A program made the position numbers and the translations under genes. Positions 3,510 through 24,440 of a stretch of 24,440 nucleotides of DNA are shown in pieces (within the stretch, counting starts at the first letter, position 1; each line of letters begins with the position of its first letter). Below the pieces are notes generated by a model, which was not told the DNA's origin, did not search any database, and saw only the letters and a list, made by a program, of their open reading frames with translations. The stretch comes from a virus (Duplodnaviria; Heunggongvirae; Uroviricota; Caudoviricetes): the IMG/VR virus record IMGVR_UViG_2585427750_000026. One strand, given 5' to 3'.

Positions 3510-5784
3510 AGCCTCCGGGCGTTTTGTCCCTCCGTCAGCATTTACCGCAGGCACCGGTAAGGCGTTTACCGGTGCTTATGCATGGAACGCGCCACGCGAG
3601 GCTGTCGGGCGCGAAAGACCTCTTACACGTGACGAGATGCGTCAGGTGCAAGGTGTTTTATCCACGATTAACCGCCTGCCTTACTTTTTGCGCTCGCTGT
3701 TTACTTCACGCTATGACTACATCCGGCGCAATAAAAGCCCGGTGCACGGGTTTTATTTCCTCACATCTACTTTTCAGCGTCGTTTATGGCCGCGCATTGA
3801 GCGTGTGAATCAGCGCCATGAAATGAACACCGACGCGTCGTTGCTGTTTCTGGCAGAGCGTGACCACTATGCGCGCCTGCCGGGAATGAATGACAAGGAG
3901 CTGAAAAAGTTTGCCGCCCGTATCTCATCGCAGCTTTTCATGATGTATGAGGAACTCTGCGATGCATGGGTTGATGCGCATGGTGAAAAAGAATCGCTGT
4001 TTACGGATGAGGCGCAGGCTCACCTGTATGGTCATGTTGCTGGCGCTGCACGTGCTTTCAATATTTCCCCGCTCTACTGGAAAAAATACCGTAAAGGACA
4101 GATGACCACGAGGCAGGCATATTCTGCCATTGCCCGCCTGTTTAACGATGAGTGGTGGACTCATCAGCTTAAAGGCCAGCGTATGCGCTGGCATGAGGCG
4201 TTACTGATAGCTGTCGGGGAGGTCAATAAAGACCGTTCTCCTTATGCCAGTAAACACGCCATTCGTGATGTGCGTGCGCGCCGCCAGGCAAATCTGGAAT
4301 TTCTTAAATCGTGTGACCTTGAAAACAGGGAAACCGGCGAGCGCATCGACCTTATCAGTAAGGTGATGGGCAGTATTTCTAATCCTGAAATTCGCCGGAT
4401 GGAGCTGATGAACACCATTGCCGGTATTGAGCGTTACGCCGCCGCAGAGGGTGATGTGGGGATGTTTATCACGCTGACCGCGCCGTCAAAGTATCACCCG
4501 ACACGTCAGGTCGGAAAAGGCGAAAGTAAAACCGTTCAGCTTAATCACGGCTGGAACGATGAGGCATTTAATCCAAAGGATGCGCAGCGTTATCTCTGCC
4601 GTATCTGGAGCCTGATGCGCACGGCATTCAAGGATAATGATTTACAGGTCTACGGTTTGCGAGTCGTCGAGCCACACCACGACGGAACGCCGCACTGGCA
4701 TATGATGCTTTTTTGTCATCCACGCCAGCGTAACCAGATTATCGAAATCATGCGTCGCTATGCGCTCAAAGAGGATGGCGACGAAAGAGGAGCCGCGCGA
4801 AACCGTTTTCAGGCAAAACACCTTAACCGGGGCGGTGCTGCGGGATATATCGCGAAATACATTTCAAAAAACATCGACGGCTATGCACTGGATGGTCAGC
4901 TCGATAACGACACCGGCAGGCCGCTGAAAGACACTGCAGCGGCTGTTACCGCATGGGCGTCAACGTGGCGCATCCCGCAATTTAAAACGGTTGGCCTGCC
5001 GACAATGGGGGCTTACCGTGAACTACGCAAATTGCCTCGCGGCGTCAGCATTGCTGATGAGTTTGACGAGCGCGTCGAGGCTGCACGCGCCGCCGCAGAC
5101 AGTGGTGATTTTGCGCTGTATATCAGCGCGCAGGGCGGGGCAAATGTCCCGCGCGATTGTCAGACTGTCAGGGTCGCCCGTAGTCTGTCGGATGACGTTA
5201 ACGAGTACGAGGAAGAAGTCGAGAGAGTGGTCGGCATTTACGCGCCGCATCTCGGCGCGCGTCATATTCATATCACCAGAACGACGGACTGGCGCATTGT
5301 GCCGAAAGTTCCAGTCGTTGAGCCTTTGACTTTAAAAAGCGGCATCGCCGCGCCTCGGAGTCCTGTCAATAACTGTGGAAAGCTCACTGGTGGTGATACT
5401 TCGTTACCGGCTCCCACGCCTTCTGAGCACGCCGCAGCCGTGCTTAATCTGGTTGATGACGGTGTTATCGAATGGAATGACCCGGAGGTCGTGAGGGCGC
5501 TCAGGGGCGCATTAAAACACGGCCTGCGAACGCCAAACCGTCAGCAAAGAAACGGAAGCCCGTTAAAACCGCATGAAATTGCGCCATCGGCCAGACTGAC
5601 CCGGTCGGAAAGAATGCAAATTACCCGTATCCGCGTTGACCTTGCTCAGAACGGTATCAGGCCGCAGCGATGGGAGCTTGAGGCGCTGGCGCGTGGCGCG
5701 ATCGTAAATTATGACGGGAAAAAATTCACGTATCCGGTCGCTGATGAGTGGCCGGGATTCTCAACAGTAATGGAGTGGACATAA
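3499..5784 (+). CDS. A: Rolling-circle replication initiation endonuclease gpA
   Basis: 761 aa from the ATG at 3499 (MAVKASGRF...), matching the P2 A N-terminus as I recall it. Contains the HxH-type motif (PHWHMMLF) and candidate catalytic tyrosines (GYIAKYISKN). The ORF-track start at 3457 is an upstream in-frame alternative. Confidence 0.9.
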   Translation: MAVKASGRFVPPSAFTAGTGKAFTGAYAWNAPREAVGRERPLTRDEMRQVQGVLSTINRLPYFLRSLFTSRYDYIRRNKSPVHGFYFLTSTFQRRLWPRIERVNQRHEMNTDASLLFLAERDHYARLPGMNDKELKKFAARISSQLFMMYEELCDAWVDAHGEKESLFTDEAQAHLYGHVAGAARAFNISPLYWKKYRKGQMTTRQAYSAIARLFNDEWWTHQLKGQRMRWHEALLIAVGEVNKDRSPYASKHAIRDVRARRQANLEFLKSCDLENRETGERIDLISKVMGSISNPEIRRMELMNTIAGIERYAAAEGDVGMFITLTAPSKYHPTRQVGKGESKTVQLNHGWNDEAFNPKDAQRYLCRIWSLMRTAFKDNDLQVYGLRVVEPHHDGTPHWHMMLFCHPRQRNQIIEIMRRYALKEDGDERGAARNRFQAKHLNRGGAAGYIAKYISKNIDGYALDGQLDNDTGRPLKDTAAAVTAWASTWRIPQFKTVGLPTMGAYRELRKLPRGVSIADEFDERVEAARAAADSGDFALYISAQGGANVPRDCQTVRVARSLSDDVNEYEEEVERVVGIYAPHLGARHIHITRTTDWRIVPKVPVVEPLTLKSGIAAPRSPVNNCGKLTGGDTSLPAPTPSEHAAAVLNLVDDGVIEWNDPEVVRALRGALKHGLRTPNRQQRNGSPLKPHEIAPSARLTRSERMQITRIRVDLAQNGIRPQRWELEALARGAIVNYDGKKFTYPVADEWPGFSTVMEWT

Positions 5785-6236
5785 TGGCAAAAATTCACGA
5801 GGTAAAGCTGCACGCAAAATATTTCGACCTTGTGCTGGAAGGAAAGAAACGCGCAGAGTTTCGGAAAAATGACCGTAATTATGAGCGCGGGGACACGTTG
5901 ATTTTGCATGAATGGGTGCAGGGTGTGTATACGGGGCGAAAGGTTGAAGCCCGGATAACAGATGTTACTGACCTGTCAGACTGGCTGGAAGATTATGTCT
6001 TGCTAAGTATTGAGCTGCTTAATACAGGTGCATATGAGATTGTGAACTGGAAAGAACTTAGTGAGCGTGGTCTGGTATTCAGAATTAATCATGAAATTAT
6101 GCATCAGCTCGGCCTTGCTGTTATGTATGAACCAGAGACGGGGATGTCTGGCGGGGCAATGGTTGCCACGGATGGAGCATGGAACTATTCAGATGAACAG
6201 ATGGAGCGTGCACAGCAAAACGGGTGGCTTGGATAA
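5784..6236 (+). CDS. ASCH/DUF3850-like protein (extended orf91-like)
   Basis: 150 aa from the ATG at 5784 (TAATG overlap with the A stop). N-terminus EVKLHAKYFDLVLEGKKRAEFRKNDRNYERGDTLILHEW resembles the ASCH-like DUF3850 fold by pattern. Lower GC than the replication genes. Confidence 0.5.
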   Translation: MAKIHEVKLHAKYFDLVLEGKKRAEFRKNDRNYERGDTLILHEWVQGVYTGRKVEARITDVTDLSDWLEDYVLLSIELLNTGAYEIVNWKELSERGLVFRINHEIMHQLGLAVMYEPETGMSGGAMVATDGAWNYSDEQMERAQQNGWLG

Positions 6237-6469
6237 TGCACAGAATGCCAGGCGAGATACCGCACCATAAAACTAAAAATATCAAGCTGATGGCTGTTGT
6301 TCACCGTCTACAGCAGATTATGGTCAACGAAAATCTGACGCCCGATGAGCTGGTCGGGTGTGCCGAAATAGTCCGGGATAATTACAGACGGTTTAACGAT
6401 ATCAGTAGACAGAAAAGTGAGACATTTCGGCCAGCTAACATGCCAAAACCACCACCACGCAGGCCGTAG
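6236..6469 (+). CDS. Hypothetical small protein
   Basis: 77-aa ORF, translationally coupled (TAATG) to the preceding gene; proline/basic-rich C-terminus; no recognisable domain. Confidence 0.35.
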   Translation: MHRMPGEIPHHKTKNIKLMAVVHRLQQIMVNENLTPDELVGCAEIVRDNYRRFNDISRQKSETFRPANMPKPPPRRP

Positions 6470-6702
6470 AGAACCCCGCTATCCATGAAACTTGCTTTCA
6501 GGGAGGCGGGTTGAATAAAAGTAGCTTTGCCGAAAAGTCTAACTATCTTGGTTTTTGCTGGTCCAAAGTTAATAAACAAACCTGCTTGTATGCAGCGGGT
6601 TTCCATATTGCCGTTTCGTATGCATGCCGCACCGTGCAAAGAGTATGAAAAATGTTATGGAAAAACGGGGATTAGTGTTATATTAATGGCTGAAAAGTGG
6701 TC

Positions 6703-6767
6703 TTGACACAGGTTGTTGTGTGTGGTAAGGCTGTATCCCTTTGGCATTCAAAATGTAGGAGGCAACC
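6703..6767 (+). promoter_or_regulatory. Putative promoter and strong RBS for the peptidase gene
   Basis: TTGACA at 6703..6708, AT-rich stretch upstream (TTATATTAAT 6678..6687), and Shine-Dalgarno AGGAGG at 6757..6762, 5 nt before ATG 6768. The -10 element is not clear-cut. Confidence 0.35.
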
Positions 6768-7244
6768 ATGAGCATCGCAGCTAAAAATCTGCTTAATCGC
6801 TATTGGGATCGCCGACTACCTGTCGATCCGTTTAAGCTCGCCGCAGCGTGGGGTGCAAGAGTGGAGCCGCTCAGGGAACCAGCGAATGGGTTAAGTGGTT
6901 CAGCCGTAATAGAAAATGGCATACCTTATATTTATTTTAACTCAAATGAACATTACAACCGCCAACGCTTTACTGTAGCGCATGAGCTCGGTCATCATGT
7001 TTTAGGGCATACTCAAGACGGAGAATATCATCGCGATATTGTAGGCAACTACTCAACTGGCATCCGTGATTATCGTGAAATAGAAGCTAACCAGTTTGCT
7101 GCAGAGCTATTGATGCCGGAAGAGGCCATTCGTCAACTAGTGTCGCGTATAGGCGTTGATAGTACATTACGTTTGGCAAACATATTTAACGTTTCTGAGG
7201 CTGCTATGCACTGGCGTCTTAAAGCGTTGGGTATGGCTTACTAA
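6768..7244 (+). CDS. ImmA/IrrE-family (Peptidase_M78 / COG2856-like) zinc metallopeptidase
   Basis: 158 aa with HEXXH (AHELGHHVLGH) followed by the downstream glutamate motif EANQFAAELLMP typical of ImmA/IrrE peptidases. No fused HTH domain. Strong RBS. Confidence 0.75.
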   Translation: MSIAAKNLLNRYWDRRLPVDPFKLAAAWGARVEPLREPANGLSGSAVIENGIPYIYFNSNEHYNRQRFTVAHELGHHVLGHTQDGEYHRDIVGNYSTGIRDYREIEANQFAAELLMPEEAIRQLVSRIGVDSTLRLANIFNVSEAAMHWRLKALGMAY

Positions 7245-7274
7245 TACCCTCTTTAACTTTTTTCAAACCGGTTT

Positions 7275-7311
7275 AAAATCACCATTATTTTATTAATAAT
7301 GGTGATTTTTT
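7275..7311 (+). promoter_or_regulatory. Perfect 15-bp inverted repeat (hairpin) with T-run immediately upstream of the membrane-protein start
   Basis: AAAATCACCATTATT (7275..7289), loop TTATT, AATAATGGTGATTTT (7295..7309), then TT and ATG at 7312. The right arm contains the only SD-like sequence (GGTGA) for the downstream gene. Confidence 0.5.
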
Positions 7312-7932
7312 ATGGCAGATATCGACCTCTCTGGCCAATCTCCGGCTCAGTCTTCCCAGCCATCCAAAACTTCAACCTTTCCACATCCACCTAGCGATGC
7401 CGATCCAGATATTTTGTTACGTAGAGAAGTGCATGATGGCATGGAAAGGAGGGGAATGCGCTTAGTTTTGTCAGCCACCGTACTTTTTTTTGCCATAATG
7501 TTTTTATGGAAAGGTCTGTATTTCGCTCTCGAAGTCGGAAATGGTTTGCTTGCGGCTAAAAGTAGTATTGTTTCAGCGTTGGCACAAAATGATGAAAAGG
7601 TTGTTTGCGAACCTAAAACTAAATGTATTGAGCCTAAACAGCAGACAATGAAACCTACAGAAAAAACTCCCGGCATGTCAACAAAGGGTGATAGAGTAAT
7701 GCCAAACTTATCTACAGATTGGCTTTCTGCAAGTTCGCTAATTGCCATAGTCGCTTTCATCCTTGGTGTTGGCTTGACGTTAATCCTTACCCTACTTAAG
7801 TCCGCTTTTCATCATCCGACTGATAAAAATCTCAATGAGCAAAAAACAACAGATGCGATTGAGTTGGCGACTCCCTTAAGTGAGTTAATCGCGGGTATTA
7901 TTAATTATCTCAAGAGCAAATTTTCTAAATAA
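7312..7932 (+). CDS. Two-transmembrane-helix membrane protein, unknown function (candidate effector)
   Basis: 206 aa with two hydrophobic helices (LVLSATVLFFAIMFLWKGLYFAL and LIAIVAFILGVGLTLILTLL) separated by a hydrophilic loop of about 70 aa containing two Cys. Lower GC than the phage core. Confidence 0.6.
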   Translation: MADIDLSGQSPAQSSQPSKTSTFPHPPSDADPDILLRREVHDGMERRGMRLVLSATVLFFAIMFLWKGLYFALEVGNGLLAAKSSIVSALAQNDEKVVCEPKTKCIEPKQQTMKPTEKTPGMSTKGDRVMPNLSTDWLSASSLIAIVAFILGVGLTLILTLLKSAFHHPTDKNLNEQKTTDAIELATPLSELIAGIINYLKSKFSK

Positions 7933-8141
7933 CGTCCTCTTGGTTATTTTTTAAATCAGCACCATTAGTGCCGGTTTTTTTATGCTGTTTTACTGTAATT
8001 TCCCTGTTTTTAAGCCGTGCATGCAGCAGGTGCATGGTTTTGCATGCGCAGGAAGTGTCCGTTCTGGCCGAGCACCGGCAGAACGGACGCGGATCCAGAA
8101 CGGTCATGCAACTGCATTCAAACCACCCCATGAAGCGGGCG

Positions 8142-8160
8142 GGCGAGGCGGGGAAAGCAC
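8142..8160 (+). other. cos: cos cohesive-end site (19 nt)
   Basis: GGCGAGGCGGGGAAAGCAC matches the 19-nt P2 cohesive end as I recall it, and sits at the expected position between the accessory region and gene Q. Confidence 0.7.
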
Positions 8161-8302
8161 TGCGCGCTGGCGGGGGTGCTGATTTTATTTTTTCAGCGTC
8201 TGAGCGCGTCGTGATGGCGTTTAGATTGTGCGCCGGGGCGTTGGTGTGTCTGCGGGCTGTTTTGTGCGGTGGTGAGCGTGTGAGGGCGTGATGACGGGGG
8301 GT

Positions 8303-17577: not shown

Positions 17578-18363
17578 TTATGAGTGATTTTTATTTGATG
17601 CTTTGTATTCTAAAACCTTCTTATTGGCGTAAAAGAATTTTGTATATGACAGGAATATAACCAGACCTGAAGTGAAATAGACGAGGGATAGTATTAATAA
17701 TGCTTTTTTGTGACTGTTATTATCTTTAATCTCCTGGCTTAACCATTCGGAGTCCTCCTCGTTTAGCTGTAAGAGCTTATTGCAGGCGATTTCAGGAAGT
17801 GTGTCTTTTATAAATACGTTTTGCAGTCTCTTGCAATCGGCAAGGCTATAAGTTTTATTAAATTCAACTGCTTTATTTTTGAAGGATAAAAGAACTTTGT
17901 CACTATAAACATAGTACATCATATTTTTATATGGTATGCCTATGGCATCTCTTACTATAGCGGATTGTTTGTTGTGTATATAACATGCGAAGAGAATATA
18001 AATAATACTGGCCAGAATTACAATTATTGTTTTAATTATGTGTGGTGGTTTTGTTATGTCACCCCAGATGCGAGTAAGGAAAAAATACGATGTTTTTAGT
18101 TTTCCATCAATCAGTCCCTGCTGTATCATTCTCACATTTTCAATGCCTGATACATTGATTCCGTTAATTATTTTAAATAGTTGAATGTCGCGCCACTCGC
18201 GGTCAAGTCTTTTTAATTTTTTGTCTGAATATCCAAAATTGAAATAATGTGCAATAAGCCTCATAAGGTTACTTTTACCAAAGCTAAAAAATGCTAATAC
18301 TGCAAAGCTACAAAGGAAAAAAACGATTAGCCCCCACACATTAGTCACATTATAGCTGACCAT
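17578..18363 (-). CDS. AT-rich membrane protein of unknown function (P2 orf30-like accessory gene)
   Basis: 261 aa on the strand opposite the late operons, with a strong SD (AAGGAG). Markedly AT-rich with Lys/Asn/Ile/Phe-rich composition. Three hydrophobic helices (N-terminal, central IIKTIIVILASIIYILFACYI, C-terminal LILSLVYFTSGLVIFLSY). Confidence 0.6.
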   Translation of the reverse strand: MVSYNVTNVWGLIVFFLCSFAVLAFFSFGKSNLMRLIAHYFNFGYSDKKLKRLDREWRDIQLFKIINGINVSGIENVRMIQQGLIDGKLKTSYFFLTRIWGDITKPPHIIKTIIVILASIIYILFACYIHNKQSAIVRDAIGIPYKNMMYYVYSDKVLLSFKNKAVEFNKTYSLADCKRLQNVFIKDTLPEIACNKLLQLNEEDSEWLSQEIKDNNSHKKALLILSLVYFTSGLVIFLSYTKFFYANKKVLEYKASNKNHS

Positions 18364-20872: not shown

Positions 20873-23200
20873 ATGAGCACAAAATTCAAAACCGTTATCA
20901 CCACTGCTGGTGCAGCAAAGCTGGCAGCGGCAACCGCGCCGGGAGGGCGGAAGGTCAACATTACCACGATGGCCGTCGGGGATGGCGGTGGTAAATTGCC
21001 TGTCCCGGATGCCGGACAGACCGGGCTTATCCACGAAGTCTGGCGACATGCGCTGAACAAAATCAGCCAGGACAAACGAAACAGTAATTATATTATCGCA
21101 GAGCTGGTTATTCCGCCGGAGGTGGGCGGTTTCTGGATGCGTGAGCTTGGCCTGTACGATGATGCTGGAACGTTAATTGCCGTGGCGAACATGGCTGAAA
21201 GTTATAAGCCAGCTCTTGCCGAAGGCTCAGGGCGTTCGCAGACCTGCCGCATGGTCATCATCGTCAGCAGTGTGGCCTCAGTGGCGCTGACCATTGACAC
21301 CACAACGGTGATGGCAACGCAGGATTACGTTGATGACAAAATTGCAGAACATGAACAGTCACGACGTCACCCGGACGCCTCGCTGACCGCCAAAGGTTTT
21401 ACTCAGTTAAGCAGTGCGACCAACAGCACGTCTGAAACACTCGCCGCAACACCAAAAGCGGTAAAAGCAGCATATGACCTTGCTAACGGGAAATACACTG
21501 CACAGGACGCCACCACAGCGCGAAAAGGCCTTGTCCAGCTCAGTAGTGCCACCAACAGCACGTCTGAAACGCTCGCCGCAACACCAAAAGCGGTAAAAGC
21601 AGCATATGACCTTGCTAACGGGAAATACACTGCACAGGACGCCACCACAGCGCGAAAAGGCCTTGTCCAGCTCAGTAGTGCCACCAACAGCACGTCTGAA
21701 ACGCTCGCCGCAACACCAAAAGCGGTAAAAGCAGCATATGACCTTGCTAACGGGAAATACACTGCACAGGACGCCACCACAGCGCGAAAAGGCCTTGTCC
21801 AGCTCAGTAGTGCCACCAACAGCACGTCTGAAACGCTCGCCGCAACACCAAAAGCGGTAAAAGCAGCATATGACCTTGCTAACGGGAAATACACTGCACA
21901 GGACGCCACCACCGCGCGAAAAGGCCTTGTCCAGCTCAGTAGCGCCACCAACAGCGATTCTGAAACGCTTGCGGCAACGCCAAAGGCGGTTAAGACAGCG
22001 TATGACCTTGCTAACGGGAAATACACTGCACAGGATGCCACCACAGCGCGAAAAGGTCTTGTCCAGCTCAGTAGCGCCACCAACAGTGATTCTGAAACGC
22101 TGGCTGCAACACCAAAAGCGGTGAAGTCTGCCTATGACAATGCTGAAAAACGTCTTCAGAAAGATCAGAACGGTGCGGATATTCCTGATAAAGGACGCTT
22201 CCTGAGTAACATTAATGTTTACAGCAAAGGTGAAGTGGATAAGAAAAAGGGAATGCGAAAGTATTCGTTTGCAGCCCCTGCAAATGTCGTTGCCGGGAAG
22301 TGGTATCCCGTTATCTTTCGCCGTGCTGCCAGCCTTTCAGGAGAAATGGCATCCCGCGTCGTTATTTCAACTGGTTGTTATAACGGCGATTATGTAATGA
22401 ATAACTGCGAGTTTAATGGCATGGTTATGCCCGGAGGCTGGACCGATCGTGGTTCATATGCGGCAGGTTATTTCTGGACGTATCAGACTAATGAGCGTTC
22501 AATCCATTCCATTGTTACAAGCCTGAAAGATGATGATGTATGTAGTGTTTTTTATGTTGAAGCCAGAGCTTTCCCTGTGCAAATTCTTGCAGAGGAAGGG
22601 CTAACGGTTATTGTTCCGACAGAGGATTATGTCGTCGGTCAAACGACATATAAGTGGGGGGCAACTAATCCCGCTACAGAAAGCACGAACGCACAGGCTA
22701 TTCTGGATTTTAAAAATGGACGTGGTTATTACTGTTCACATCCATTTATTTCCAGCCTTTCAGGAAATGCTGCAACAGCAACGAAGTTAGCGAACGCAAG
22801 AAATATTAATGGTGTCAGATTTGATGGCTCTGCCGATATAAATATTAATACACTGGTATCCAGAAACCGTGTTAATGCATTAGGTGGGAGCGTAAAGGGG
22901 ACACCAGGTATTCAGATGTATGAGGCATACAACAATGGCTACCCAACAGCCTATGGTAATGTGCTTCATCTCACTGGCGTAACCGCAGTAGGAGAGGGTG
23001 AGTTACTTATTGGCTGGAGTGGAACCAGCGGTGCTCATGCTCCGGCATATATTCGTTCCCGACGAGATACCACAGATGCTAACTGGTCTGGATGGGCGCA
23101 ACTATATACAACTGCTCATAAACCCTCAGCGGGAGATGTTGGTGCATACATAGACTGGCCCCCTGAATCTCCAGACAACCAATATCACTTAAATAAGTGA
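20873..23200 (+). CDS. H: Tail-fibre protein gpH, repeat-expanded and 3-prime interrupted by IS2
   Basis: N-terminus [20 protein letters not shown] is P2 H-like. Contains about 5.7 in-frame copies of a 44-aa repeat. The last 16 codons plus stop (23153..23200; the boundary codon at 23150..23152 straddles the junction) are read from the IS2 terminal repeat, so the native C-terminus is missing. Confidence 0.85.
21392..22135 (+). repeat. Tandem 132-bp (44-codon) in-frame repeat array in H, about 5.7 copies
   Basis: Unit KG(F/L)(T/V)QLSSATNS(T/D)[12 protein letters not shown](A/T/S)[18 protein letters not shown] starting at 21392, 21524, 21656, 21788, 21920 and 22052. Copies 2 and 3 are nucleotide-identical, copy 4 differs by one base, and copies 1, 5 and 6 are more divergent. 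Confidence 0.9.
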
Positions 23201-23241
23201 TAGTCTTAATACTAGTTTTTAGACTAGTCATTGGAGAGCAG

Positions 23242-23607
23242 ATGATTGATGTCTTAGGACCGGAGAAACGCAGACGGCGTACTACACAGGAAAAGATCGC
23301 TATTGTTCAGCAGAGTTTTGAACCGGGAATGACGGTCTCCCTTGTTGCCCGGCAACACGGTGTGGCAGCCAGCCAGTTATTTCTCTGGCGCAAGCAATAC
23401 CAGGAGGGAAGTCTTACTGCTGTGGCCGCAGGAGAGCAGGTCGTTCCTGCCTCTGAACTTGCTGCTGCCATGAAGCAGATTAAAGAACTCCAGCGCCTGC
23501 TCGGCAAAAAAACGATGGAAAATGAACTCCTTAAAGAAGCCGTTGAATACGGGCGTGCAAAAAAGTGGATATCGCACGCGCCCTTATTGCCCGGGGATGG
23601 GGAGTAA
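23242..23607 (+). CDS. insC: IS2 transposase OrfA (InsC), HTH
   Basis: 121 aa [41 protein letters not shown]... recognised as IS2 InsC. Confidence 0.85.
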
Positions 23608-24440
23608 GCTTAGTCAGCCGTTGTCTCCGGGTGTCGCGTGCGCAGTTGCACGTAATTCTCAGACGAACCGATGACTGGAAAGATGGTCGCCGCAGCCGTC
23701 ACTCAGATGATACGGATGTGCTTCTCCGTATACACCATGTTATCGGAGAGCTGCCCACGTATGGTTATCGTCGGGTATGGGCGCTGCTTCGCAGACAGGC
23801 CGAACTTGATGGTATGCCTGCGATCAATGCCAAACGTGTTTACCGGATCATGCGCCAGAATGCGCTGTTGCTTGAGCGAAAAACCGCTGTACCGCCATCG
23901 AAACGGGCACATACTGGCAAAGTGGCCGTGAAAGAAAGCAATCAACGATGGTGCTCTGACGGGTTCGAGTTCCGCTGTGATAACGGAGAAAAACTGCGAG
24001 TCACGTTCGCGCTGGACTGCTGTGACCGTGAGGCACTGCACTGGGCAGTCACTACGGGCGGCTTCGACAGTGAAACAGTACAGGACGTAATGCTGGGAGC
24101 GGTGGAACGCCGCTTCGGCAACGAGCTTCCGGCGTCTCCAGTAGAGTGGCTGACGGATAATGGTTCATGCTACCGGGCTAATGAAACACGGCAGTTTGCC
24201 CGGATGTTGGGGCTTGAACCGAAGAACACGGCGGTGCGGAGTCCGGAGAGTAACGGCATAGCAGAGAGCTTCGTGAAAACGATAAAGCGTGACTACATCA
24301 GTATCATGCCCAAACCAGACGGGTTAACGGCAGCAAAGAACCTTGCAGAGGCGTTCGAGCATTATAACGAATGGCATCCGCATAGTGCACTGGGTTATCG
24401 CTCGCCACGGGAATATCTGCGGCAGCAGGCCAGTAATGGG
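23565..24440 (+). CDS. insD: IS2 transposase OrfB (InsD, DDE catalytic domain), 3-prime partial, in the -1 frame relative to insC
   Basis: Open frame from 23565 to the window end encoding ...[37 protein letters not shown]...[13 protein letters not shown]...[16 protein letters not shown]. Reached by a -1 frameshift at A_AAA_AAG (23559..23565). Absent from the ORF track because no stop lies inside the window. Confidence 0.8.

Follow-up and report, generated by a model that had tools for sequence, protein, structure and literature searches.

The window, by which we mean the whole stretch of 24,440 nucleotides that was analyzed, carries a P2-like prophage whose tail-fiber gene H runs into a copy of the insertion sequence IS2. 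An integrase gene on the minus strand (1-1011) lies at the start of the window, followed by P2-type early genes, a cargo region, the genes Q, P, O, N, M, L, and X, the lysis genes, and then R, S, V, W, J, I, and H. The lengths of the prophage gene products are typical of P2, and apart from the interruption of H no second lesion is visible within the window. The sequence is 99.8% identical to the prophage of E. coli strain 602687 and ~97% identical to isolated P2-like phages (vB_EcoM-12474III, Wphi, and P2), the latter identity reaching ~21465-22195, that is, through the 5' part of H.

Between the replication gene A and the portal gene Q, four ORFs were found in the cargo region (5748-8291). 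The first (5748-6236) is an ASCH/DUF3850 and DUF7415 ORF, and the second (6768-7244) codes for an M78 peptidase recognized by the PADLOC capP (3.8e-31) and RmrA models, while no family hit was obtained for the other two (7312-7932, 206 aa, and 7968-8291, 107 aa). The region, which lies in a known variable spot of P2, may represent a cassette for phage defense or for regulation. An additional ORF of 261 aa lies on the minus strand between the tail genes S and V (17578-18363). It gave no Pfam or PADLOC hit, and its exact sequence was absent from a collection of 15 billion proteins; the relatives have an equally long hypothetical protein annotated at this place.

The last prophage ORF occupies positions 20873-23200 of the plus strand and has 775 codons, coding for 775 aa. 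As defined by Pfam and by alignment to intact alleles, its native part (20873-23150) comprises codons 1-759 and the first base of codon 760. Residues 1-151 correspond to Phage_tail_fib (PF12571), the N-terminal tail-collar domain, which is followed by six Phage_fiber_2 (PF03406) fiber repeats of 44 aa each and then by the shaft. Upstream of it are the baseplate genes V, W, J, and I (Phage_base_V, GPW_gp25, Baseplate_J, and Tail_P2_I, respectively), so that the collar domain and fiber repeats expected of a P2-type H after V-W-J-I are all present. The complete C-terminal tip that such a gene also has, with the cognate assembly gene behind it, was not found in the window. This copy of H is a disrupted allele and not a functional member of the P2-type tail fiber H.

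The alleles of E. coli strains 602687 and 602354 (loci L001 and L002) were used for comparison at the base level. In both, H has 749 codons, and a 175-aa tail-fiber assembly gene (tfa) begins three bases later. An independent loss of H in strain 602687, where PGAP lists the gene as two "incomplete" pseudogene pieces, was considered and discarded, since translation gives an open frame of 749 codons. This two-piece annotation (3888-6137 of L001) appears to be an artifact, probably arising from the repeats. At both loci, an S1-family peptidase gene, likely a moron, was also observed between tfa and the sheath gene FI (7062-8054).

By BLASTP, residues 1-759 of the window ORF are the same as residues 1-671 of the intact protein, except for two extra 44-aa repeats: the window H has six fiber repeats, whereas its nearest intact relatives have four. 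Uninterrupted, the window H would be expected to have ~837 aa, versus 749 aa in the relatives, so that near-identical prophages differ in how many shaft repeats they have. At the DNA level, these six repeats are seen as a 132-bp tandem array inside H (21413-22122; 5.4 copies, 96% match).

At the junction, the window follows the intact H alleles base for base up to position 23150 (…GGTGCATACA) and is unrelated to them from 23151 on. The intact allele reads GCATACA|CCAAAACTGAG at this point, which lies 236 nt upstream of the native H stop. The native side of the fusion protein ends in ...GDVGAY, and codon 760 (ATA) spans the junction, with the A being native and the TA coming from IS2. The IS2-encoded end (23151-23200, plus strand) is made up of these two bases, 15 further codons, and a TGA stop (23198-23200). 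The preliminary description had placed the entry of the H frame into the IS2 terminal repeat at 23150/23151, and the alignments to the intact alleles and to IS2A of K-12 agree on that position. It had also attributed the final 16 codons, together with the stop, to IS2, a count that is exact when the straddling codon 760 is included. The five bases abutting the element, ATACA (23146-23150, plus strand), are the predicted first copy of a 5-bp target-site duplication, as judged from the intact allele and from the copy in strain L73 described below; a second ATACA would be expected past the right end of IS2.

Positions 23151-24440 on the plus strand correspond to positions 1-1290 of the 1331 of a common iso-form of IS2. 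An ungapped alignment with IS2A 1-1290 of K-12 MG1655 contains 56 mismatches (95.7% identity), and the first 87 nt are identical. The left inverted repeat (IRL; 42 bp, 23151-23192), which ends in TA, matches exactly the published one, and the layout of orfA and orfB and the A6G frameshift window are likewise those described for IS2, a copy-out/paste-in element of the IS3 family (Lewis et al. 2011, PMC3219604). The transposase genes have the same direction as H. An intact orfA (InsC, 23242-23607) codes for 121 aa with the Pfam domain HTH_Tnp_1 and is one residue off InsC1 of K-12, and the A6G slippery motif, at which a −1 frameshift yields OrfAB, is found at 23559-23565. The orfB frame (InsD, 23565-24440), with the Pfam domains HTH_21, rve, and rve_3, runs for 292 codons without a stop and is cut ~10 codons before its own stop by the end of the window; 12 of its 292 residues differ from InsD1. 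With an IRL ending in TA, two overlapping ORFs joined by A6G, and a high identity to the reference element, the sequence has the features by which IS2 is recognized, and the identification made in the preliminary description was upheld by the database comparison. No second IS2 end, as would belong to a composite or rearranged structure, was found within the window.

The 27-mer of the IRL occurs once in the window and in none of 100 shuffles. The exact IRL match, this shuffle control, and the alignments show that the boundary at 23150/23151 is correct and not a chance effect. An earlier start of IS2 was suggested by the top BLAST matches, which begin at query positions 232-241; these proved to be chance extensions favored by ranking on coverage, and the start is fixed at 23151 by aligning the window to intact H and to IS2A of K-12. 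H and IS2 share no sequence at the break, which coincides exactly with the start of the IS2 terminal repeat. When complete E. coli genomes were searched by BLAST, the H side (22250-23150) was present at full length in 50 of them with 99-100% identity, strains 602687 and 602354 being among these, and the sequence from 23151 on matched IS2-type elements in 4800 of the 5426. The junction between the two was found in none of the 5426. Copies of this IS2 variant with at least 99% identity over the whole 1290 nt were present in 1017 records, and PGAP labels similar copies as "IS3-like element IS2 family transposase." In strain L73 (L005), a sister copy of 1331 bp, differing from the window copy at two of the 1290 positions, carries ATGCC on both sides as a 5-bp duplication and has the right inverted repeat that the window lacks.

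One public contig codes for the exact fusion protein (KEK75002.1), namely JOQD01000033.1 (51,883 bp) from the assembly GCA_000713895.1 of E. coli 3-475-03_S3_C1. A search of the literature by the name of this strain returned only an unrelated mention. In RefSeq and UniRef, the same protein is listed simply as "tail fiber protein" (WP_113707426.1; UniRef100 cluster with five members), with no pseudogene flag, and this label is a database annotation error. The window ends together with the draft contig at its 3' end; this contig was seen in two samples and stops 41 bp short of the right end of IS2, exactly where the 41-bp right inverted repeat would begin. The assembler thus seems to have crossed the IS2 variant and to have broken off at the terminal repeat. 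Because the window stops where the contig stops, the absence of G is an artifact: it had been stated that G is not adjacent to H, and tfa/G is indeed not in the window, but this has no biological meaning in a draft contig that ends inside IS2.

The missing end of H was found elsewhere in the same assembly. A search with the 78 displaced C-terminal residues, followed by listing of the best cluster, retrieved KEK74230.1, a protein of 66 aa (MRLGGASTYK…NVAQV) annotated as "gpH domain protein." It matches the 66 C-terminal residues of intact H exactly and comes from the same strain, but from another contig (33,433 bp). Since KEK75002.1 and KEK74230.1 belong to one strain, the 3' end of H persists on a different contig. 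The right junction was modeled as the right end of IS2 (...GGGGCAAATCCA) followed by ATACA and the continuation of H (CCAAAACTGAGTCAG...). In this model, an in-frame TAG lies in the IS2 right repeat. Translation could resume first at a GTG, for a product of 69 aa (MRDMRLGG…), and next at an ATG, for one of 66 aa (MRLGG…), and the protein collection contains exact copies of the two. Given the 66-aa remnant, which the same strain has on a second contig, a simple insertion is the best reading, and this topology is strongly indicated by the predicted junction. Exact-pattern scans of metagenome_contigs and genome_contigs for the right end of IS2, 0-12 nt, and the continuation of H returned no match, as would be expected for a strain-specific event.

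A deletion or inversion mediated by the element after its insertion, with the right prophage arm lost or displaced, is quite unlikely, even though the right junction is outside the window and the several IS2-type copies in most E. coli genomes (median of 4 matching places per genome) offer substrates for recombination. Retention of the H remnant in the same strain, with an ORF start exactly where a simple insertion predicts it, argues against such a rearrangement, although inversion by way of a second IS2 copy would be compatible with it.

The sequence displaced by the simple insertion consists of the 78 native C-terminal residues of H, TKTESDSRYVRDMRLGGASTYKPANNGTTWTHQAPSGCVYTGIIVQDTGSNSADNIGGVYYRPVQKYINGTWYNVAQV. 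That the native C-terminus had been displaced was part of the preliminary description, and the lost segment can now be given its length and its kinship, as it is homologous to the distal tip of a Mu-type fiber. It aligns with residues 435-503 of 504 of the Mu tail fiber S (5YVQ), with the end of the Mu S/S' fiber (8JU3), with residues 480-552 of 554 of the short tail fiber 9CUY, and with the C-terminal ends of several PHROG tail-fiber families. Compared as DNA, the 3' half of H is similar to P1 Sv'. In Mu, the fibers (gp49 and gp50) are the LPS-recognizing organ and bind the LPS of the host (PMC11915804), and the TFA protein stays on the distal part of the fiber, ensuring assembly and trimerization (published work summarized in PMC9608196). 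In P2, the C-terminal part of the fiber sets the host range, and a ΔHG lysogen requires both H and its chaperone in trans for producing infectious particles (PMC9942202).

By homology to these fibers, the truncated H would lack the folding nucleus that depends on the chaperone as well as the tip that faces the receptor. Because the tip is the target of the Tfa/G chaperone for folding and trimerization, and also the host-facing part, the truncated H is most likely unable to form a working fiber. A mild effect, in which the fusion fiber is still usable or a fiber or tip from another element keeps the prophage infectious, is very unlikely. It would be favored by the retention of 759 H residues, among them the N-terminus that binds the baseplate and the greater part of the shaft, and by the exchangeability of tail-fiber modules, as chimeric P2 fibers work in trans (PMC9942202). 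The entire conserved tip domain is lost, however, and the Mu-type chaperone, which is needed for trimerization, acts on precisely this distal part (PMC9608196). Moreover, G would follow the 1.3 kb of IS2 within one operon and, through polarity, is probably under-expressed.

The support for the junction comes from draft assemblies, with the contig seen in two samples and the UniRef100 cluster having five members. That the H-IS2 join is a chimera of short-read assembly and that H is intact in the real genome is nevertheless barely credible: although the window stops at a contig end within a multicopy repeat and the junction is missing from the 5426 complete genomes, the break falls exactly at the IS2 terminus with no shared sequence to mislead the assembler, the contig continues for 1290 bp into IS2, the identical fusion protein has five UniRef100 members and the contig is present in two samples, and the 66-aa remnant, starting just past the insertion point, was called separately in the same strain, which would not occur if H were continuous.

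Taken together, these data are best explained by the insertion of a single copy of the common IS2 iso-form into the 3' part of H in a P2-like (Peduovirus) prophage, which probably leaves it with no working fiber, a reading to which we assign a probability of about 85%. An ordinary transposition event of the IS3-family type put one IS2 copy into the 3' part of H, thereby exchanging the last 78 residues, a distal tip of the Mu S/P1 S' type, for 16 residues encoded by the element. The remainder of H would be kept beyond IS2, presumably with the assembly gene G and the other late genes after it, and the lysogen would at best release particles incapable of adsorption. From the homology of the tip and the literature on P2 and Mu, the prophage is probably non-infectious. 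The right arm might bear further lesions, or a compatible fiber might be supplied by another prophage in the genome. Because transposition is of the copy-out/paste-in type and we know of no regular precise excision of IS2, reversion by loss of the element should be rare.

Insertions of IS elements that inactivate prophage genes are commonplace, and an event of this kind is already known. The value of the present case lies mainly in annotation: the 775-aa WP_113707426.1 is an H-IS2 fusion, and the prophage carrying it is to be scored as probably non-infectious. It adds a further instance, from a commensal or clinical E. coli lineage, to the prophages inactivated by IS elements and involves no new mechanism. 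It is highly improbable that the lesion was retained as a "domesticating" one, by which a lineage with about five entries of the fusion protein would keep a non-spreading prophage for its immunity and cargo genes, or would make fiberless particles that have another use. If the prophage were domesticated, the candidate cargo would be the M78-peptidase (CapP/RmrA-like) cassette with two further ORFs at the A-Q hotspot, and a second candidate would be the S1-peptidase moron of the relatives.

Compared with known systems, the element shares with IS2A of K-12 the 42-bp IRL, gapless collinearity over 1290 nt, the A6G overlap of orfA and orfB, and the HTH_Tnp_1 and rve domains, but as a distinct iso-form it differs from the K-12 copy by 4.3% nucleotide divergence (56/1290) and by one amino acid change in OrfA and 12 in OrfB. 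The displaced tip has the conserved ...RPVQK.INGTWYNVA end in common with the fibers of Mu and P1, that is, S (gp49) with its chaperone U (gp50), and S'/U', respectively. The homology to Mu is nevertheless restricted to the tip domain, as the remainder of the fiber and the backbone of the prophage are of P2 type, with no invertible segment. With phage P2 and its V-W-J-I-H-G late operon, the window shares the same upstream gene order and the same N-terminal tail-collar domain, but the C-terminal half of its H is a mosaic with a P1 Sv'/Mu S-like tip, and IS2 lies inside the gene. From its nearest relatives, the window H is further distinguished by having six fiber repeats instead of four.
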